From IMG/VR virus record IMGVR_UViG_3300016744_000001: 64,000 nucleotides of DNA; one strand, 5' to 3'. Below the pieces are notes generated by a model. The model was not told the DNA's origin. It saw only the letters and a list, made by a program, of their open reading frames with translations, and did not search any database. The position numbers were made by a program, and so were the translations under genes. This DNA comes from a virus (lineage: Duplodnaviria; Caudoviricetes). Each line of letters opens with the position of its first letter. Position 1 is the stretch's first letter. Shown here piece after piece: positions 3 through 52,375 of the stretch.

Positions 3-146
3 AAGACACGTATCCGGTTGGATGAAAACGGTCATGGTACTTTCCGGTTCATTTCCCTTGGTCTTGAGAAGGGTGACATCATGAAGGTCAAAGCTGGTTT
101 CAGGTTCATGACAAACTCTGCTGAAGCGGATATCGCAATCATCTAA
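3..146 (+). CDS. 3' end of a hypothetical protein immediately upstream of the radical SAM pair (partial)
   Basis: Open frame from the window edge: KTRIRLDENGHGTFRFISLGLEKGDIMKVKAGFRFMTNSAEADIAII, TAA at 144-146, then a hairpin. Confidence 0.7.
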   Translation, partial: KTRIRLDENGHGTFRFISLGLEKGDIMKVKAGFRFMTNSAEADIAII

Positions 147-157
147 CAGTCATTCTC

Positions 158-187
158 ACAGAGTCAGGGAGTACTCCCTGACTCTGT
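158..187. terminator. Perfect 30-bp palindrome / terminator-like hairpin
   Basis: ACAGAGTCAGGGAGT|ACTCCCTGACTCTGT just after a stop codon. Confidence 0.7.
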
Positions 188-244
188 ATATCTACTGCAT
201 TATTTATGCATCGGTTACACCAAAAATAAACCTGAGGAACAGAT

Positions 245-1483
245 ATGTTAAGTCTAGTCTTCAATGACAAATCGCTTGAGAAATTCAAGATCGACTTCAA
301 TCCGTACACCATGAAGTTTGGTCAGGATGTCCAAGATATCAAACCGCTGATGACTGTGCAAACAAAGATCCACAGCAAGTCACCAAAAGTGCTCAAAATC
401 ATGCTTGGTGACGCTTGCAACTTTCGCTGTAAGTATTGCCGTCAAGATCATCATGGTCGGAAAGATTCTTTCAATCCGGCACGATTAGCAGCATTCATGC
501 AGATGCTCACGAACAACCTGTCACTGCATCAGCTTGAACGTGTGGAGTACTGGGGCGGTGAACCCCTCTTGTATTGGGATGAAATCCGGTACTTGATGGA
601 CAGAATCGAGACACACGTAAAACGGCCCGTAACGCACCATATAACGACGAATGGCAGTTTGCTGACCAATGACATCGTTTCAGACATAAAGTCGCTTAAA
701 TACCTCTTTAAGCTCTCTCACGATGGTCCTGGGCAAAGTCTTCGCACGGCAGATCCATTGAAGCTGCATGAAAGCAAGATCATGGATCTGTACACCCACA
801 TGAAGACGGCTGAAGGAAGCAAGTTTCACATCAACTCGGTGCTGACCAAATTGTGTCCGTCACCTTTCACGATTGTGGATTTCTTCCGAAAGAGGTTTGA
901 CAACGATGTCTCGATCATGAAGATCGAACCAGTCATCCCGTACAATGATGATGCGTTGTCTTACGCGATCAATCCAGCAGACATGCCGAAGTTCTCATTC
1001 CAGATCGCCAACGACATCATCCGTGGGGATATCGTCAGAAGTGTTGTGGAATACCAACAGCTGTGGGATGCTTTCGTTTTGATGGAAGCTGCCCCTGACT
1101 ACATCTACAACATGACTGAAGCCAAATGTCATGGGTCACAGTTGATGACTATCTGCACTGATCTCGATGGTAACCTCACCCCTTGTCAGGTGTATGACAA
1201 CTACACTCCTGATCAAGTCATCGGCCATCTGACCAAGCTGGATGACATCAAGGAAGAACTTCCTTATGCTCCGATCAATCGCGCCGGTCGTTGCACCAAC
1301 TGCCCTGTGATCTCACTGTGCCGTGGGGTATGCCCACACATTGCTCCTGGTCAGCATGCTGACACCAACTGTCTGATGCGGTACAACACGTACCTGGGTA
1401 TCCTTACTGCGTTCCTGTTTTTCAAGACTCAGAAATTCTTGATTCAAGTTAACGGGGACTATTACCACAACCAACAAAGGTAG
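245..1483 (+). CDS. Radical SAM protein with SPASM domain (1)
   Basis: CNFRCKYC (CxxxCxxC), WGGEPLL, TTNGSLL, SHDGP; C-terminal C...GNLTPC...CTNCPVISLCRGVC...C; GAGG RBS. Confidence 0.93.
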   Translation: MLSLVFNDKSLEKFKIDFNPYTMKFGQDVQDIKPLMTVQTKIHSKSPKVLKIMLGDACNFRCKYCRQDHHGRKDSFNPARLAAFMQMLTNNLSLHQLERVEYWGGEPLLYWDEIRYLMDRIETHVKRPVTHHITTNGSLLTNDIVSDIKSLKYLFKLSHDGPGQSLRTADPLKLHESKIMDLYTHMKTAEGSKFHINSVLTKLCPSPFTIVDFFRKRFDNDVSIMKIEPVIPYNDDALSYAINPADMPKFSFQIANDIIRGDIVRSVVEYQQLWDAFVLMEAAPDYIYNMTEAKCHGSQLMTICTDLDGNLTPCQVYDNYTPDQVIGHLTKLDDIKEELPYAPINRAGRCTNCPVISLCRGVCPHIAPGQHADTNCLMRYNTYLGILTAFLFFKTQKFLIQVNGDYYHNQQR

Positions 1484-1488
1484 TTCAC

Positions 1489-2820
1489 ATGCAACTGATT
1501 ACCTTAAAGAATGGTACTCAGCTTAAGTTCGATCCAGTCAGCGTTAAGTTCTTCCAGATGGACGGTACTCCGATCACGGTCAGGAATGATATCAATGCTG
1601 ATCAAGATTGTTCCAAAGTGAGTAACCAACTGAACATGCACATGCATGCGAACACAAGATTCGACAACCCGAAAAACTTGCGTATCGTTCTTGGGCACGC
1701 CTGCAACTTCAAGTGCAAATACTGCAGTCAGAGTCACTCACCTCTTGACCTGCCCCCGGCCAAACAAGTTAGCAAGTTCATGATGGACTTGTTCAAAACG
1801 ACTAATCTTTCCCAGTTGAAGGTTATCCAATTCTGGGGTGGTGAACCACTGCTGTACTGGCCAACCATCTGCTTCTTTATGGATGCATTCCGGGAGATCA
1901 ATCCCAACATTGGGTTCTCTATCGTGACCAATGGTAGTTTGATCACCAAGCGCATGGGCGATGTCATTCTGAACGACGACCAGTTTGGTTTCATCCTTTC
2001 TCATGACGGTCCGGGTCAACATCTCCGTGGGATTGATCCATTGGCTCTGGGTTCTCGTACCAGAGACATCCTGTTACAGTTGGCAAAGGAAAAGGTGCCC
2101 AACCAACACCGGAAGTACTTGAATGAAGGAAGGAACTTTGCAGTCAATCCGGTGATCACCTCAGCTGTGGGTTCACTCACATCCTTGGTAGAATGGTACG
2201 ACAAAGCCTTTGAAGGTTGCGAAGTACCAATCGCTGAATCAATTCCTGTGATCCCAATCCAAGACGACACGGCACAATACGCGCTGCATCATGACGATCT
2301 ACCCAAGTATACAGCGATGATCTACCACGATCTACTGAAGCTTGGGTTGCATCGTTTTGACAACTACAAGATGCTGTATGATCTCTTCCTTCAGAAGTGG
2401 TCACTTCCGCAATTCTTGGTGAACCCCAAAAAAGCTTTGTGCTTCACCACCGATCCATACATGCTGACATTGGACCTGAATGGTAACATCTTACCATGCC
2501 AGACTTTTGCAGCTTCGGATCATCTTGGTAATGGGGAACCAGCATCTTACAGTAACCTGCTGGATTTTGGTGACAAGACTGATCCCACCACAACCGGACC
2601 AGACATCAAAATGCCAACAGTTCATGGTTATGGTAGCCGAGGTAGTAAGTGTAGTAACTGCCCAGTAGTTTCTTTCTGCATGGGTGGTTGTCCTTACCTT
2701 GTTGGTGCACAACACGACATTGACTGCCGTGTCAAGTACCATCATTTCCTTGGACTACTGTTTACCTTTGTCACAATGGCCTTTGGTGAAAAGGTCCTCA
2801 AAATCGAAACCCTCGATTGA
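1489..2820 (+). CDS. Radical SAM protein with SPASM domain (2), paralogue of 245..1483
   Basis: CNFKCKYC, FWGGEPLLYW, VTNGSL, SHDGPGQ; C...GNILPC...CSNCPVVSFCMGGC...C. Confidence 0.93.
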   Translation: MQLITLKNGTQLKFDPVSVKFFQMDGTPITVRNDINADQDCSKVSNQLNMHMHANTRFDNPKNLRIVLGHACNFKCKYCSQSHSPLDLPPAKQVSKFMMDLFKTTNLSQLKVIQFWGGEPLLYWPTICFFMDAFREINPNIGFSIVTNGSLITKRMGDVILNDDQFGFILSHDGPGQHLRGIDPLALGSRTRDILLQLAKEKVPNQHRKYLNEGRNFAVNPVITSAVGSLTSLVEWYDKAFEGCEVPIAESIPVIPIQDDTAQYALHHDDLPKYTAMIYHDLLKLGLHRFDNYKMLYDLFLQKWSLPQFLVNPKKALCFTTDPYMLTLDLNGNILPCQTFAASDHLGNGEPASYSNLLDFGDKTDPTTTGPDIKMPTVHGYGSRGSKCSNCPVVSFCMGGCPYLVGAQHDIDCRVKYHHFLGLLFTFVTMAFGEKVLKIETLD

Positions 2821-2825
2821 TGACT

Positions 2826-2853
2826 ATCCCTGCTAGGCTATCCTAGCAGGGAT
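2826..2853. terminator. Hairpin between convergent genes
   Basis: ATCCCTGCTAGG-ctat-CCTAGCAGGGAT. Confidence 0.75.
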
Positions 2854-15386: not shown

Positions 15387-16892
15387 TTAATCAGAAAGAC
15401 CAAGAATATCCCCAAGGATTTCTTTAGTTGTTGCCACAGAAACCAATGAGAACCATTGTGTCACCCAGAACTTAAGGAATTCAACATCCTCAGCCTGGAT
15501 GGTGGATGGCGGGTTATTGATAAGACGATTGATACGGTTCTGAAGTGTTCCTCTTTCAAGGTACTCGTCAAAACTTTCGTCTGCGATCAGCTCGATCAAC
15601 GGATTGACATCTTCCGGATCAACAGTGGTGTCATCTGACGTTGTGTCTGTCGATGAAGAGGAACCATCCCCTTCACTGTCATCAGACCCATCAGGATCAC
15701 CCGAAAAGTCATCGTCTGCAAACGGATCATCACCACCATCGTCCCCAGTCTCCTCGGTCGAAGTATCGTCCGAGTTATCACTGCCTGACTCCGTAGTAGT
15801 GGTATCATCAGCTGCCTTTGTGTCGTCACCATCGTTCGATGAAGATTCCGAAGAATCTGCAGCTTCCATACCATACCCAACAAGACTCAGTGAGGAGAGG
15901 AATTTCAAGTCACCTTGTTCTTCCCACTTCTCAACTTGTCCCATCGTTGGGTTTGTATTGGTAAGGTAGGTCAACCGGTTGTCTTTAAGGTAACTGAACA
16001 AGTCACCGAACTGACTAAGTTGAACAGGTTCCTTCTCAATAAGAGAAGGGTACTTTGTTGTCAGGGCACGAAGCATATTCAACATTTCAGTCGAATACAT
16101 TTTTGTGTTCACTGACATCCCGAGTGAGTTGCGGTGGAAGTAATTTTTCAACACACCACACAATGATTCTGAACCTCGTTGTTTCAGATCATCAATGAAC
16201 AAGCTCTGCAAAGTGTCGACCAACTCATGCCACGTATGCCCATTGTAGTTCATCGAGCAGATGTATTTGTGCGTGGGGTTGGTCGTGTGATATGAATCAA
16301 CACTTTGCATGGATGAGTATGAACGAGCAAAGAAGGTAACCGCAACGTCAGTCTTGCTCGTCTTATCCCGACGAAGCACTGGCGACAAAACAATTGGCGC
16401 CAGGAACTTCCCATCGGGATTCAAAATGTTGAAGGAGTTCTCCTTCACTTGAAGATACGGAATACTGAAGTTCCTTGGAACTGTGCAGTATTTCGAGTTC
16501 TTTGGCCCGGTGAATGTATCCACCAAAGCGGTGATATTCATACCAGGGAGTTTTCCAGTATAAACATACTTGGCGATCAATTCCTGATCTGCCGGTGTTA
16601 TCTGGGCATCTTCCTCAGTGCCACCAAGATCAAAGTCTTCGTCTTGGTAAGTTTGAAGGTTCAAACGCAACACGTTTCGGTAATCGATCAGTGCATTGTT
16701 GTTCGGGTCAGCTGCCAGCAAGTAGTCTGCCAGCAAAGCTTGCTCGAAGAAGATTGAAAGGATATCACGAACACCAAACTTCAAGAGTTTTTGGTTTCTG
16801 CGATATACCGCAGCGGTGATGTGCGATGCTACAAGGTTGGACAGTTTTGGTGTCATCTTTGAGGGACGAACACTGAGATATCTGATCTTCAT
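15387..16892 (-). CDS. Virion head protein (phiKZ gp119-like)
   Basis: Between helicase and MCP; GAGGT RBS before MKIRYL; G-M-E site followed by a long D/S/T-rich linker. Confidence 0.6.
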   Translation of the reverse strand: MKIRYLSVRPSKMTPKLSNLVASHITAAVYRRNQKLLKFGVRDILSIFFEQALLADYLLAADPNNNALIDYRNVLRLNLQTYQDEDFDLGGTEEDAQITPADQELIAKYVYTGKLPGMNITALVDTFTGPKNSKYCTVPRNFSIPYLQVKENSFNILNPDGKFLAPIVLSPVLRRDKTSKTDVAVTFFARSYSSMQSVDSYHTTNPTHKYICSMNYNGHTWHELVDTLQSLFIDDLKQRGSESLCGVLKNYFHRNSLGMSVNTKMYSTEMLNMLRALTTKYPSLIEKEPVQLSQFGDLFSYLKDNRLTYLTNTNPTMGQVEKWEEQGDLKFLSSLSLVGYGMEAADSSESSSNDGDDTKAADDTTTTESGSDNSDDTSTEETGDDGGDDPFADDDFSGDPDGSDDSEGDGSSSSTDTTSDDTTVDPEDVNPLIELIADESFDEYLERGTLQNRINRLINNPPSTIQAEDVEFLKFWVTQWFSLVSVATTKEILGDILGLSD

Positions 16893-17025
16893 TTCTAATG
16901 ACCTCACTGAAGTGATGTTCGGTTCGCATAGGATGCTGCTTTCGTATCCTATTTTCATCAATATCCATATGCATCGACTAGGCAATTCTCTCGAAAAAAT
17001 CCCACTTAACATAGGCGGAAGCAGT

Positions 17026-18639
17026 ATGAATGGCGGTCTCTCACTCAATACCTTTTTGAACGCCCTGATTCTGTTGGTAGGATCTAAGGATGATGAGTCC
17101 TTAGATCTGGTCAATCAGTTGATTGATGTTTACCAAGAAGAAATTAAAATGAACAAAGGTCTGGATACTGTCCTGGCAAGGAAGTTTCTTGCCTTGTTGA
17201 AAGACCTGCGTAAAATCCCAAGGAAGGACGAGAACGATATTGAGCGAGTGTCACTCATTGCTGACTTCCTCACCAATAACAAAACTGTTGAAGATCAGGA
17301 CGCGTTGTTCTTTGACTCCATGAAGAGTATCTTCGAAGCGTCTAAGAACACCCAAGGCGATAGTGACTTCTACATTAAGAAAAAGAAACAGATCAAGAAC
17401 ACGTTAACTTGGGCACGTTTCAAACGAATGTGTGCCCGAATGTACGGTCAGCTGAACGAATTTCTGTCGACCACGGATGAAGACCAGCAGGCGGACTACC
17501 TCTCCAACTGTGTGAATGTCGCCAGAAAGCTAGTCGACTCCGTCCGTGGTGACATCGGTAGCATGAACAACGGTGCTGAAGAACGTGTCATATTTTCAGA
17601 CGATGCATCTTTGAAGGCTGCTCTTGAAAAAGCTTTAGCTTCTGAAAAGGGCGGTGCAGTGTTGAAGACTGGGATGAAAGGTCTAAACACAATGCTAGGA
17701 AAACGTGGTGGGTTTGTTCGTGGTGAATGGGTAATTATTTACGGTCTCTCCCATCATTTCAAGACAGGTCTTCTGTTGTCAATCACTCGTGGGATTGCCA
17801 AGAACAATGATCCGACCAAGCTGGTCAAACCTGGGAAGAAGCCACTCATCCTGCTTGTCTCTTTGGAGAACTACGCAAACCGCAACTTGCTGTGGTTCTA
17901 CAAGACAGCATACGCTTGTACGTTCAACAAGCCACCGGACCCAGAAATGTCCATGGAGGACATGATCCATTTCATCAAAGACTTCTACGTTCAGTCTGGT
18001 TGGGAGTTCATCATTGAACGTTACAAGGGCATGAACTTTGGTTATGACGAATACGTCAGCACTATAGAAAAATACGAAGCTCTTGGTTATGAAGTGGTTG
18101 TGGCCGAAGTGGATTACATGGAGAAGATGAAGAAAACTTCCTCTATCTTCAGTGGTGAAGCTGAATCCCACACTGGGCTTACGGCACTTGCAGATGGTCT
18201 CTTTGGCTACAACAAGTCCAAAGAAATCCTATTCATCTCACCACACCAGTTCAACCGCAAGATGCAAGAACTGGCTGACCGAGTCAAGACCAACGTGGTT
18301 AAACACTTCAGTGCTGATGGTGTTGGTGGTGCGATCTCAATCAACCAGATTGCTGACCTTGAAATCTATGTTTACATTGAACAAGACTTCGAGAAGAATG
18401 CTTGGTTGACGGTGCAACGTGGCAAGCATCGTTACGTTGATGACACTCCAGTTGCTCATCGTTACTTCGCGCAGAAGTTTGACAGTGAGCTTGGTATTCT
18501 GGATGACATTGACCTGAAAGAAAAGTACTTTGTTCGTGACATCTACGCCAACGACAGTGAAGCAACTGAAGGCAGCAGGAAAGGCTCAAAACCTGATGCG
18601 TATGCTAAGCCAGGCATTGGTGCAGATGAAGTGTTCTAG
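17026..18639 (+). CDS. DnaB-like replicative helicase (phiKZ gp118-like)
   Basis: LKTGMKGLNTML, Walker A-like GLSHHFKT, VSLEN, EVDYM, SPHQF, RGKHR. Confidence 0.85.
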   Translation: MNGGLSLNTFLNALILLVGSKDDESLDLVNQLIDVYQEEIKMNKGLDTVLARKFLALLKDLRKIPRKDENDIERVSLIADFLTNNKTVEDQDALFFDSMKSIFEASKNTQGDSDFYIKKKKQIKNTLTWARFKRMCARMYGQLNEFLSTTDEDQQADYLSNCVNVARKLVDSVRGDIGSMNNGAEERVIFSDDASLKAALEKALASEKGGAVLKTGMKGLNTMLGKRGGFVRGEWVIIYGLSHHFKTGLLLSITRGIAKNNDPTKLVKPGKKPLILLVSLENYANRNLLWFYKTAYACTFNKPPDPEMSMEDMIHFIKDFYVQSGWEFIIERYKGMNFGYDEYVSTIEKYEALGYEVVVAEVDYMEKMKKTSSIFSGEAESHTGLTALADGLFGYNKSKEILFISPHQFNRKMQELADRVKTNVVKHFSADGVGGAISINQIADLEIYVYIEQDFEKNAWLTVQRGKHRYVDDTPVAHRYFAQKFDSELGILDDIDLKEKYFVRDIYANDSEATEGSRKGSKPDAYAKPGIGADEVF

Positions 18640-33048: not shown

Positions 33049-34509
33049 TTATTTTTGTTTTTTCTTTCCAGTCGGTTCTGGCTTGGGTGGAACGATGGTG
33101 TCAGTAACCTGTACAGACGAGTTGACATCCTTCATCCCAACTAGCTCAAAAACGTCCATAATTGACATGTAAGGACGTTTTTCTTCAGTGTCGTATGTCC
33201 AGTACCCTCGGCTCTGAAGAATGTCGTTAACGTCAATTCTGGAGGATTGATTGATCCTCTCCACAAAGTTCTCAACCGTCGCTGGAATGTCATACGGATA
33301 CGCTGCCGTATTCCAGTAATGGTGAATCCAGTGGAACTGGAACATCAATTCCAAGGTGCGTTTTGCCGCGTAGTTCTCGTCACAGGTCTGACGGATACTA
33401 TTCCGGTGGAATGGTACATCCGGCAACAGTGGTGAGAACCGGTTGTAGCCTTTGAGCAGGAACCCAGAAGATTCGTACTCACCAGACTTGGCCTTATCAC
33501 TGACGTCACGCAGATACTCGTAGTACGACAGGTCAGCAAGGACACCACGGTGCTGACTCATGACAGTGGGGATGATTGTGCCGGTCATGTTGTTCTTACC
33601 ACGAAGAACCTTCATTTCCAGCTTGTTGATTTCCACTTTTTCACGGTCAGTGGCGTTGAGATCCCCTGAAGGATACAACGGTTGTCCATCTTGGTCGACC
33701 AGTGGTTTGGGTCTTGCCAACTGGAATGACAAGTTCGGCAAGTACTGAAAGTTCTTGCCAGCATTGGTGATCTTTTCACCCTGCTTCAGCCACTGGTTCT
33801 GCTTCGGTGTGGGGCGACGAGGATCAATTTCGATCTTCGAGTCCACATGAGCAGTAACGAAGAAGTACATGCTGTACCGATAAGCGTAGGTGATGAACAG
33901 ATCCATCAGACGCTTCTTGATGCGAGCATCGTACATGTCAGCGGTGTTGTTCGACTTGTCTTCCATGCCGGTTGAGAAGTCGACATTGTCAGTGCTCAGG
34001 TTGGAGATCGAGTCCAGCGAGATGAATGTCGGGACCATGATCTTCAACGGCTTGCCAGTGTTGGTATCCAAGAATGGTGTTTCCACCAAGTATTCTTGCT
34101 TGTTCTTCAGTTTGTACTCACCAAGGTTGGTAAGGAATTCAATGTATTCTTTCAGGTTCATCTCACCCTTATTGGTCAAGTGAACCCGTTCGTCAACATT
34201 GACATTCAAACCTTGAGCCAAGCGATAGAAACGATGCAAGCTGGTGGACGTGTTTTCGGTGTCGTACTTGAAGTACTCTGACCTCGGATAAATCTCCATC
34301 AGGTTAACAACCATGTTGTCAACTGTAGTCGACTTAAAGTAACCACTTCTGGCAGAGAATCCGTTTACCGGTGCAGCACCAGCATCAAGCAACCACGCAC
34401 CGTTGAAACCTTTGACATAAATGCCAGTGCAGATATCAATCGGTGATCTGGTGTTGAGGTATGGGTAGAAGTATGCAGGTTTGAATCCTGCTGCTTGGGC
34501 AAGTGACAT
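33049..34509 (-). CDS. uvsX: RecA/UvsX-like recombinase (phiKZ gp152-like)
   Basis: IDICTG, Walker A-like ARSGYFKST, YDTE, Walker B ISLDS, TAH, RGKN. Confidence 0.8.
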   Translation of the reverse strand: MSLAQAAGFKPAYFYPYLNTRSPIDICTGIYVKGFNGAWLLDAGAAPVNGFSARSGYFKSTTVDNMVVNLMEIYPRSEYFKYDTENTSTSLHRFYRLAQGLNVNVDERVHLTNKGEMNLKEYIEFLTNLGEYKLKNKQEYLVETPFLDTNTGKPLKIMVPTFISLDSISNLSTDNVDFSTGMEDKSNNTADMYDARIKKRLMDLFITYAYRYSMYFFVTAHVDSKIEIDPRRPTPKQNQWLKQGEKITNAGKNFQYLPNLSFQLARPKPLVDQDGQPLYPSGDLNATDREKVEINKLEMKVLRGKNNMTGTIIPTVMSQHRGVLADLSYYEYLRDVSDKAKSGEYESSGFLLKGYNRFSPLLPDVPFHRNSIRQTCDENYAAKRTLELMFQFHWIHHYWNTAAYPYDIPATVENFVERINQSSRIDVNDILQSRGYWTYDTEEKRPYMSIMDVFELVGMKDVNSSVQVTDTIVPPKPEPTGKKKQK

Positions 34510-50902: not shown

Positions 50903-52375
50903 ATGTCCAAAAACCGAAAGGTTAGTTTGGTCGACTACACCAAGCTGTTTGAAAGTGCAACTCAACCAAAGTTCCTCAACGATTTACTCTTCAGTGATGC
51001 TGGTAAGAATGTCATTGACATGCTTTTCCAAAAGTCCGAGGGTGATCTTGAGTACGAACCCAAGTGTAGTTGTGGGGCGTATCGTGGCCGGCAGTATGAA
51101 GGACATGTTTGTCCGTATTGTGGTGAAGTCATCTTGTCTGACTTCACCAGTAACTTCTTGCCGACAAACTGGGTAGGGATTCCAGATAATCTCCCAAGGA
51201 TTATTCACCCACGGTTTTACATGATCCTCGCAAACTGGTCCAGCAGAATGCGAGTTGGTAAGAAAGGTACCCGCAATGCCGGTAAGAAACAACGAGTACC
51301 AATCATCGACTTCATTCTGAATCCGGATGAAGAGCTCCCAGACGATTTGGTTGATGGTGTGCATGGTCAGGGTTTCAGTTATTTCATCGAGCACATGGAT
51401 GAAATCATGACCTACATCTTTGAGGAACATCCAAAGTTCAGCAAGACGGCAAAAGCTGAAGAGATCATGCGAATCTATCGAGCGAACAAAGATAAGCTCG
51501 TGCTGGATAAGTTCCCGTTGCTTCACCCATCATTCCATCCGCTGCATGTCAATGGTCGTAGTCGCAAGATTGATAAGACAGCTGACATCATTCTGCCAGC
51601 TGTGATTGACATGGCCAATACGGAATTTACTCTGAGACGGTCAGTCACCAGAAAAAAGTTTGGTGATCGTGAGATCTGGAAAGTCTTCACAAAGTACATT
51701 GACTACATCAAGAAGATCATGGAGTCTAAGCTTGGTGACAAACAAGCTCTGATCCGTCGTCACAACATCGCAGCTCGCATGTTCTGGACTGGTCGAGGAG
51801 TTATCTCGCCAATCAACACCAGACACATGGGCGATGAGATTCATCTCCCGTGGAACATCATCATGTACGGCATGCAGTTGGAGATCATCAACTTCCTCTG
51901 CAACCGTCATGGGTATACCCCTACTGATGCATTGGAATACTTCTTCCGGTGTGTCAACAAGTATGATCCTCTGATTGACAACATCCTTGAGACCTCAATC
52001 AAGGAATGTCCGTACAAGGGTCTGCCTTGTGGCATGGGGCGAAATCCCACACTGCTGCGCACCAGTATCCGACTGGTCTTTTGCACTGGTTACAAGAAAG
52101 ATCCCAATGACAAATCCATCAACCTCAGCATGCGAATCTGTAAAGGTTATAATGCTGATAATGACGGGGATGAGCTTTACATCTACTTTATTAAGGAAAT
52201 GGGTATGGTGCCTTTTGCCATGCGCATGCATCCTCGTGAAGGCATCTTGAGTGAAACCACTCTTGGTGTTAGCGGGTATGTCACCCCCACGAAGGAAGCG
52301 ATCATCCACATCAATCAGTTCTTGCACTACGGTCGTGAAAACACTGGTCCGTGTGAACTGGTTCTTCCGCGATAG
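50903..52375 (+). CDS. Non-virion RNA polymerase beta'-like N-terminal subunit (phiKZ gp55-like)
   Basis: Zn site CSCG..CPYC; RMFWTGRGVISP; GRNPTL; catalytic NADNDGD. Confidence 0.9.
   Translation: MSKNRKVSLVDYTKLFESATQPKFLNDLLFSDAGKNVIDMLFQKSEGDLEYEPKCSCGAYRGRQYEGHVCPYCGEVILSDFTSNFLPTNWVGIPDNLPRIIHPRFYMILANWSSRMRVGKKGTRNAGKKQRVPIIDFILNPDEELPDDLVDGVHGQGFSYFIEHMDEIMTYIFEEHPKFSKTAKAEEIMRIYRANKDKLVLDKFPLLHPSFHPLHVNGRSRKIDKTADIILPAVIDMANTEFTLRRSVTRKKFGDREIWKVFTKYIDYIKKIMESKLGDKQALIRRHNIAARMFWTGRGVISPINTRHMGDEIHLPWNIIMYGMQLEIINFLCNRHGYTPTDALEYFFRCVNKYDPLIDNILETSIKECPYKGLPCGMGRNPTLLRTSIRLVFCTGYKKDPNDKSINLSMRICKGYNADNDGDELYIYFIKEMGMVPFAMRMHPREGILSETTLGVSGYVTPTKEAIIHINQFLHYGRENTGPCELVLPR

Follow-up and report, generated by a model that had tools for sequence, protein, structure and literature searches.

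Paired radical SAM/SPASM enzymes of a jumbo phage belong to a family encoded beside tail fibre proteins with cysteine-ladder ends

Described radical S-adenosylmethionine (SAM) enzymes with a SPASM domain may provide hints about two adjacent genes, rSAM A and rSAM B (A and B below), located in 64,000 nucleotides of tailed-phage DNA (IMG/VR record IMGVR_UViG_3300016744_000001; this entire stretch is referred to as the window). Radical SAM thioether chemistry is seen as characteristic of peptide natural products and, to date, of a few cellular proteins. Anaerobic sulfatase-maturating enzyme (anSME), another member of this group, fully ligates both of its auxiliary clusters, with eight Cys. In CteB, PapB, NxxcB, QhpD and CrpC, Cys thioethers are formed through hydrogen abstraction at the acceptor carbon, the Cys being activated on auxiliary cluster I (AuxI) (PMC9389541; PMC13692751; PMC7876137). 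For NxxcB the native acceptor of the beta-thioether is Asn, and Ala, Gln and Asp are tolerated in its place (PMC9389541). CrpC of Methanococcus voltae is a seven-Cys SPASM enzyme that introduces ranthionine links into a whole Cys-rich protein, CrpA, helped by a paralogous partner protein, and its three AuxI ligands leave an iron free for the substrate Cys (PMC13692751). Finally, QhpD pre-forms several intra-protein Cys thioethers on a small structural subunit, in complex with partner proteins (PMC7876137).

We suggest that A and B are probably two active, anciently duplicated maturases that make up the enzymatic end of a phage cassette for "fibre-tip maturation", in which a fibre-tip protein would be cross-linked by thioethers. 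The proposed cassette would run from tail-fibre genes through a fibre-type protein, ending in a ladder of Cys alternating with Asn, Asp or Ala, and an accessory protein to one or more enzymes. Thioether stapling of the ladder is proposed because the nearest enzymes form Cys thioethers and because the acceptor residues of NxxcB mirror the ladder spacers.

Both open reading frames (ORFs) are full-length and on the same strand, and the two proteins are 32% identical over about 425 columns (BLASTP, expectation value (E) 7e-69). PF04055 scores A at 35.6 and B at 38.2 bits against a gathering cutoff of 29.5, which places both in the radical SAM superfamily, and the SPASM model TIGR04085 scores B at 29.2 against a cutoff of 27. 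Both also match phrog_1802, a family of phage radical SAM proteins, over about 380 profile positions (E 1.4e-38 and 9.1e-43 for A and B, respectively). The three radical-SAM Cys and the seven C-terminal SPASM Cys (Table 1) are invariant in an alignment of 80 family sequences. In B the SPASM layout is C318-x13-G332-x4-C337, then C388/391/397/401, then C413; the CxxCxxxxxCxxxC segment covers residues 350-363 of A and 388-401 of B. Judged by these residues and scores, A and B belong to the SPASM subfamily, with two predicted auxiliary clusters. Because the domain has seven Cys, three AuxI ligands and four AuxII ligands are expected, with an open iron on AuxI; a phmmer search of PDB with B alone did not resolve the AuxI ligands. 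A family-specific motif, SHDGPGQ, is present in both enzymes.

An earlier note, made from the letters of the window, had described two adjacent paralogous enzymes with CxxxCxxC, GGEP and CxxCxxxxxCxxxC motifs. All of these were located, within a full seven-Cys SPASM pattern in each protein, and the paralogy agrees with the identity given above. The profile searches that it recommended also bear it out for PF04055 (A and B above cutoff) and for SPASM (B above the TIGR04085 cutoff). The N-terminal extensions it had characterized by FNPYT and FDPVS are found at residues 18-22 of A and 14-18 of B, where they represent the [FY][DN]P motif that the whole family has in a short N-terminal element of three strands.

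A quick maximum-likelihood tree puts A together with 11 metagenomic proteins and B together with 16 (SH-aLRT, the Shimodaira-Hasegawa-like approximate likelihood ratio test, 98 and 100, respectively), and the A and B clades join (SH-aLRT 99) apart from 47 single-copy enzymes. The separate, supported clades imply that the duplication is old and that both copies have been kept. Every cluster ligand is retained in both A and B. The N-terminal extension of B-clade proteins carries a C-S-K..N-Q motif (window positions 1609-1629, B residues 41-47) that is invariant in 24 of 24 members and absent from the A clade; the additional conserved Cys that it provides could bind a cluster or take part in catalysis. 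In L088, a metagenomic relative discussed below, a third small rSAM gene (296 aa, L088:11265-12155) overlaps the end of the B-type gene. A profile search of the window found no third rSAM of the phrog_1802-type family, and the number of enzymes may exceed two in some lineages (L088 and Ralstonia phage RP12).

At least 577 related loci were found in IMG/VR by a degenerate-pattern scan. Because all of them are at most 31% identical to B, the lineage of the window lies outside that collection. ORFs were called and proteins clustered in 80 of these loci and in three cultured phages. The module has a recurrent order: J-like central fibre, two small proteins, tail fibre, cl2, cl1, rSAM enzyme, lysis genes. 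The cl2 proteins are about 275 aa long and occupy position -1 or -2 relative to the enzyme in most loci, and the cl1 proteins (about 204 aa) resemble 2-oxoglutarate (2OG)-Fe(II) oxygenases (PF13759). Runs of four or more (X-Cys) pairs were counted in six frames in the viral loci with at least 3 kb of upstream sequence (n=64). Such a run lies upstream of the enzyme, on the same strand, in 51 of them. The 595 kb of upstream sequence hold 63 runs, compared with a single one in the 499 kb downstream and three on the opposite strand as a whole; the distance has a median of 1.4 kb, and in most cases 0-6 residues separate the run from the stop codon. In an independent metagenome set, 15 of 24 loci have an upstream run (19 runs upstream, none downstream and none on the opposite strand), giving 82 upstream, 1 downstream and 3 opposite-strand runs in the two sets combined. 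The enzyme is thus strongly, directionally and co-conservedly associated with a candidate substrate. A comparison of homologue neighbourhoods, which the earlier note had recommended, therefore places a Cys-repeat substrate class beside the enzyme in most phage loci.

The run carriers are mostly tail fibres according to the PHROGs tail-fibre families, with endings such as N-C-N-C-D-C-N-C, and the spacer X is Asn in 65%, Asp in 13% and Ala in 12% of cases. Ralstonia phage RP12 (NC_041911), a distantly related jumbo phage that shares the RuvC synteny, has three rSAM genes (ORF076, ORF077 and ORF079), which the RP12/RP31 paper lists merely as "other genes". Between ORF074 and ORF075 of RP12 there is a 65-aa ORF (L003:1852-2049), absent from the public annotation, that ends in an Asn-Cys ladder; it comes right after a fibre-like virion protein and just upstream of the rSAM cluster. 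A scan of GTDB genomes found no A- or B-clade member and three distant loci only.

Several variants of the ladder proteins were seen. A Hint/intein-like domain (PF05203) directly follows the ladder (which leads into C-F-P-A-G-T) in the tail fibre gp028 of Achromobacter phage JWF (L002:4655-6106) and in tail fibres of L021, L035, L037, L052, L079 and L119; to judge from the domain, self-cleavage would expose the ladder as a new C-terminus. Three IMG/VR loci (L051, L053 and L059) have ladders of about 25 X-Cys pairs, mostly Lys-Cys after an N-C-N-C start, 6-8 genes upstream of the rSAM gene. In loci lacking a run of four or more pairs (L013, L028, L036, L040, L071, L072, L077, L081 and L083), a Cys-rich protein of the cl14 family often lies directly beside the rSAM gene. 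The cl14 proteins have up to 19 Cys in G-N-C-N-N-G-N-C-type spacing and a C-terminal membrane-like part.

The window itself has cl2 directly upstream of the enzymes. Its first ORF aligns with positions 237-282 of the 282-position profile built from 34 cl2 proteins of other phage loci (Table 1), and it is the sole match to this profile across all six frames of the window. The earlier note had seen here the end of a beta-rich hypothetical protein; the ORF is indeed real, and it can be described more specifically, as the C-terminus of a conserved accessory family. A cl2 protein is also encoded directly upstream of the A+B pair in the relatives L087, L088 and L089 (E about 1e-25).

These relatives may also point to the substrate. 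Three contigs with B orthologues of 44% identity were found in a metagenome scan. In L088 (48.7 kb) the gene order starts with fibre-type genes (CBM_4_9, Mtd_N, phage tail repeat), a 118-aa thrombospondin type-1 (TSP1) protein and a homing-endonuclease-like insert, and continues with a 118-aa ORF, cl2 (E 5e-26), MadL and MadM, the A-type gene, the B-type gene and the third small rSAM gene. The malonate/sodium symporter genes MadL and MadM (L088:7667-8795; PF03817 1.7e-35, PF03818 1.5e-87) are unusual cargo between an accessory gene and an rSAM pair. The 118-aa protein has a TSP1 domain (PF19030, 26.9 bits against 23.8) and ends in C-N-C-N-C. A profile search of 1.84 billion representative sequences matched many animal multi-TSP1 proteins, which confirms the TSP1 relationship, along with short phage-type relatives. 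Members of the tailed TSP1-like subgroup are 113-121 aa long and share a near-invariant tail of Cys/Asn, then Cys/Ala, then poly-Cys; an AlphaFold2 model of a tailed protein was uninformative, with a predicted local distance difference test (pLDDT) of 45. In six cases, the longest contig of a tailed TSP1-like protein is equal in size to that of an A- or B-clade enzyme (12229, 11325, 11190, 14266, 14478 and 18849 bp). Moreover, one tailed member (P0301) is on a JGI/ENA contig of 273,278 bp, nearly the size of the 273,336-bp JGI/ENA contig from which the A and B proteins are on record. It belongs to the same 90% cluster as a copy whose longest contig is 12,229 bp, a size shared with the longest contig of P0001, a B orthologue of 91% identity. 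The substrate in this phage lineage is most likely a 113-121-aa TSP1-like protein with a Cys/Asn/Ala/Cys tail, which would be encoded just upstream of the window. The earlier note had remarked that the window has no sulfatase or obvious precursor. A Cys-repeat scan of its six frames gave no match within genuine ORFs, and no sulfatase occurs among the conserved neighbour families.

As to what A and B resemble, the best NCBIfam models for both are all Cys-peptide maturases (PapB, SCIFF, QhpD, CcpM, geopeptide and HxsB), with the PapB-type NF047865 on top. Every score for a characterized maturase family is far under the family cutoff: 78.9 bits for A and 57.9 for B against 340 for NF047865, 52.1 and 43.0 against 425 for the SCIFF maturase model TIGR03974, and 51.6 and 40.8 against 349 for the anSME model TIGR03942, so neither protein is assigned to any of these three families. 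Searched against PDB, the family profile matches TigE (3.8e-30), CteB (1.6e-23) and anSME (1.6e-20), and MoaA, viperin and BtrN by the core only. The AlphaFold2 model of B (pLDDT 93.1, predicted template modelling score 0.92) is most similar to CteB (Z 22.2 over 345 residues), followed by anSME (Z 21.0), ChlB (Z 20.5), EpeE (Z 12.5) and MoaA (Z 12). In this model three short strands and one short helix precede the core and are joined by a C-terminal strand, and the alignment with CteB spans residues 1-60 of this region. By profiles and predicted fold, A and B thus group with peptide- or protein-modifying SPASM enzymes (CteB, anSME, ChlB) and not with QueE, NrdG or MoaA. The earlier note would have abandoned its reading if the homologues had fallen in with these last three and no substrate had been co-conserved; the homologues group elsewhere and a Cys-repeat class is co-conserved.

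An enzyme of this group might act on the same Cys-ladder fibre proteins by other chemistry, such as anSME-like conversion of Cys to formylglycine, epimerization as by EpeE/YydG or PoyD, or another radical modification. We consider this unlikely, although the strong profile match to anSME, the alignment with the epimerase EpeE and the NCBIfam scores, none of which reaches a family cutoff, all leave room for it, and a strict period-2 repeat would equally suit an enzyme that modifies every second residue. Against it, the phage family keeps seven SPASM Cys whereas anSME has eight. The conserved neighbour families include no sulfatase and no CxPxR motif (no sulfatase model was run on the window itself), the best NCBIfam matches are thioether-forming maturases, and the ladder spacers fit known thioether acceptors (PMC9389541).

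It is also rather improbable that the pair matures a free RiPP-like peptide (RiPP, a peptide synthesized ribosomally and modified post-translationally) or small protein outside the virion, such as a bacteriocin or a factor for host takeover or metal binding, with the fibre neighbourhood being incidental. The candidate in the A+B lineage is a small stand-alone protein of 113-121 aa and not a long fibre, its arrangement of a domain and a C-terminal core tail resembles that of leader and core, and metal binding is the proposed role of CrpA (PMC13692751). In most loci elsewhere, though, the ladder ends bona fide long tail fibres that have the J-like central fibre on one side and the lysis genes on the other. 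Furthermore, the small TSP1 protein of L088 directly follows the fibre-type genes, and the cassette includes no conserved protease or exporter. Lastly, synthesis or modification of a cofactor, nucleotide or DNA base (QueE, MoaA, NrdG, viperin-like) can be given hardly any weight and was rejected on scores, fold and gene context: the matches are weak and core-only (MoaA 43 and 39 bits, viperin-type 53 and 42, NrdG2 32, QueE-like phrog_2076 E 3e-4 for A), those to MoaA, viperin-type and NrdG2 being far under their cutoffs of 284, 180 and 131 bits and covering the N-terminal half-barrel only, while A and B have a full SPASM domain, the fold is closer to SPASM maturases (Z 21-22) than to MoaA (Z 12), and the conserved neighbours are fibre proteins, not nucleotide-metabolism genes.

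Several observations weigh against thioether stapling of a fibre tip by A and B. The case for a phage modification system comes from gene linkage and homology. A and B lie outside every characterized equivalog family, so their chemistry is not confidently transferable, and by fold anSME is as close to B as CteB is, since Z-scores of 21.0 and 22.2 are a tie within the error of the method. The search for a RiPP recognition element (RRE) suggested in the earlier note came out empty, as no PqqD/RRE Pfam domain was matched in A or B at E up to 0.1. No run of four or more pairs is present in 13 of the 64 viral and 9 of the 24 metagenome loci, some of which have other Cys-rich proteins or shorter runs. 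The six equal-sized contigs point to co-residence of the tailed TSP1-like protein and the enzyme rather than prove it, and the identity proposed for the substrate of this phage derives from relatives and a near-identical contig. In the earlier note the two enzymes were proposed to form a modification system whose Cys-rich substrate would be encoded outside the window. The grouping of the enzymes, the co-conserved Cys-repeat class and the Cys-tailed protein a few kb upstream in A+B relatives favor that view; its chemistry and the phage's own substrate are still inferred. The note's further expectation, that the system works best in an anaerobic host, is not supported: phages that infect the aerobes Achromobacter xylosoxidans or Ralstonia solanacearum carry family members, as does a Limnohabitans metagenome-assembled genome.

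If A and B do staple a fibre tip, the reaction may proceed as follows. The radical SAM cluster would cleave SAM to give a 5'-deoxyadenosyl radical, which would abstract a hydrogen from an Asn, Ala or Asp acceptor of the tail, at its alpha or beta carbon. A substrate Cys nearby, held on the open iron of AuxI, would then form the C-S thioether, and the electron would leave via AuxII, each link costing 2 Da. The paralogues would probably differ in the links that they install, in the part of the tail on which they act or in their substrates, and the accessory protein may have a substrate-presenting role like the one suggested for CrpB. The outcome would be a fibre tip with covalent staples, resistant to redox change and proteases. 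More tentatively, and with our confidence a little short of even, tailed phages of many lineages may apply RiPP-type radical chemistry to the virion. In that case the A+B pair might staple the Cys/Asn ladder at receptor-binding fibre tips with thioethers, possibly between trimer chains, and each paralogue might write a link type of its own on a tail made of two parts, first a Cys-Asn block and then a Cys-Ala/poly-Cys block.

The window is phage DNA, with genes for a phiKZ-type DNA polymerase, a major head protein, RuvC, tail proteins, an RNA polymerase beta subunit, DnaB and UvsX. The ORFs for the RNA polymerase beta, DnaB-like and UvsX-like proteins (Table 1) confirm, at the level of profile matches, a phiKZ-like jumbo phage. 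Both these genes and the length of the contig that holds A and B agree with the jumbo phage assumed in the earlier note, and a megablast search of INPHARED phages gave no match. Profiles of the neighbour families cl1 (2OG-oxygenase-like), cl10 and cl14 found no match in the window. The two hairpins described as bracketing the pair are both far stronger than shuffled sequence. The first, between the accessory gene and A, has a z of -5.77, and none of 200 shuffles folds as well. It is without a clear U-run and was not called by a consensus terminator scan; it may be an attenuator or an RNA-stability element, and, placed as it is behind the accessory gene, it may keep the enzymes at a lower level of expression than the structural proteins. 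The second (-25.8 kcal/mol, z -6.0), to which the consensus scan assigns a T-rich tail and 13 pairs, including 7 G-C pairs, could terminate both convergent transcripts, that of B and that of the small ORF beyond it.

Table 1. Positions of the rSAM pair, its motifs and other features in the window
Feature	Position	Strand	Remarks
3' end (last 47 codons) of conserved accessory protein cl2	3..146	+	Runs in from left edge; profile match E 2.5e-10
Stem-loop between accessory gene and rSAM A	158..187	+	13-bp perfect stem, -25.6 kcal/mol
Radical SAM/SPASM enzyme A, 412 aa	245..1483	+	GAGGA ribosome-binding site 8 nucleotides upstream; PF04055, phrog_1802
CxxxCxxC of A (residues 58-65)	416..439	+	C58, C62, C65
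GGEP of A (residues 104-107)	554-565	+	
SPASM region of A	1127..1372	+	Seven conserved Cys: C295, C314, C350, C353, C359, C363, C376
Radical SAM/SPASM enzyme B, 443 aa	1489..2820	+	Begins 5 nucleotides past A stop; PF04055, TIGR04085, phrog_1802
CxxxCxxC of B (residues 72-79)	1702..1725	+	C72, C76, C79
GGEP of B (residues 117-120)	1837-1848	+	
SPASM region of B	2440..2727	+	Seven conserved Cys: C318, C337, C388, C391, C397, C401, C413
Terminator-like hairpin at operon end	2826..2853	+	12-13 bp stem and T-rich tail; between B and convergent small ORF
ORF of 92 aa	2858-3136	-	Hydrophobic N-terminus (signal- or lipoprotein-like); converges on rSAM B
DnaB-like helicase	16816-18639		Profile match of window ORF
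UvsX-like recombinase	33049-34509		Profile match of window ORF
phiKZ-type RNA polymerase beta subunit	50903-52375		phrog_2987, E 2.2e-86

To our knowledge, covalent post-translational chemistry on phage particles is known in a few forms only, such as the isopeptide links of the HK97 capsid, glycosylation and proteolytic maturation. The novelty lies not in the kind of enzyme, which is known, but in the class of substrate, the viral setting and the conserved enzyme pair. Full-text searches of the literature, with most subscription journals outside their scope, found no paper linking phage radical SAM/SPASM enzymes to fibre Cys tails, and the CrpC paper (PMC13692751) does not mention phages. If the proposal is true, it would represent a new class of enzymatic virion modification that affects fibre stability or host recognition, and an extra step in virion assembly. 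It would also give a role to hundreds of phage "radical SAM" genes, sometimes mis-annotated as sulfatase maturase or MoaA. Host-range engineering and the heterologous production of fibres and tailocins, possibly enzyme-dependent, would have to take it into account, and the family would amount to a natural library, and a large one, of enzymes for protein stapling whose recognition tails are short and portable.

Finally, the phage pair may be set beside the known systems. The anSME structures (PDB 4K36-39) are close to B by fold and profile, anSME acts on a Cys in a folded-protein substrate, and the JWF homologue was formerly annotated as such an enzyme. Unlike anSME, the phage family has seven conserved SPASM Cys instead of eight and no sulfatase or CxPxR target in its conserved neighbourhood. 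QhpD, which acts on QhpC, the gamma subunit of quinohemoprotein amine dehydrogenase, differs in its biological setting and in its model (TIGR03906, 47.6 bits for A and 41.3 for B against 453). PapB forms Cys-Asp thioethers in the repeated motifs of PapA (the freyrasin ranthipeptide), although A and B are outside the PapB equivalog. NxxcB, which makes the streptococcal Cys-Asn beta-thioether in NxxcA, has an acceptor range that mirrors the Asn, Asp and Ala spacers of the phage ladders. Here the likeness is in acceptor residues and not in any specific sequence relationship: the spacing is NxxC as opposed to the strictly alternating X-Cys of the phage ladders, and the substrate is no virion protein but a small peptide under quorum regulation. 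CteB (PDB 5WGG/5WHY), the SCIFF maturase acting on CteA, is the best fold match (root-mean-square deviation 4.2 Å, model residues 1 to 433) and has in common with the phage enzymes a three-cluster radical SAM/SPASM architecture and a Cys-rich substrate. The phage pair, in contrast, is virus-encoded and without a detected canonical RRE, and would act on a fibre-type protein rather than on a 45-aa SCIFF peptide. CrpC belongs to an archaeal cellular system, has an RRE and is distant by its model (TIGR04463, 39.5 bits for A and 29.6 for B against 525). The phage family nevertheless keeps only seven SPASM Cys, as CrpC does, and CrpC with CrpA offers the best precedent for a protein, not a peptide, as the substrate.

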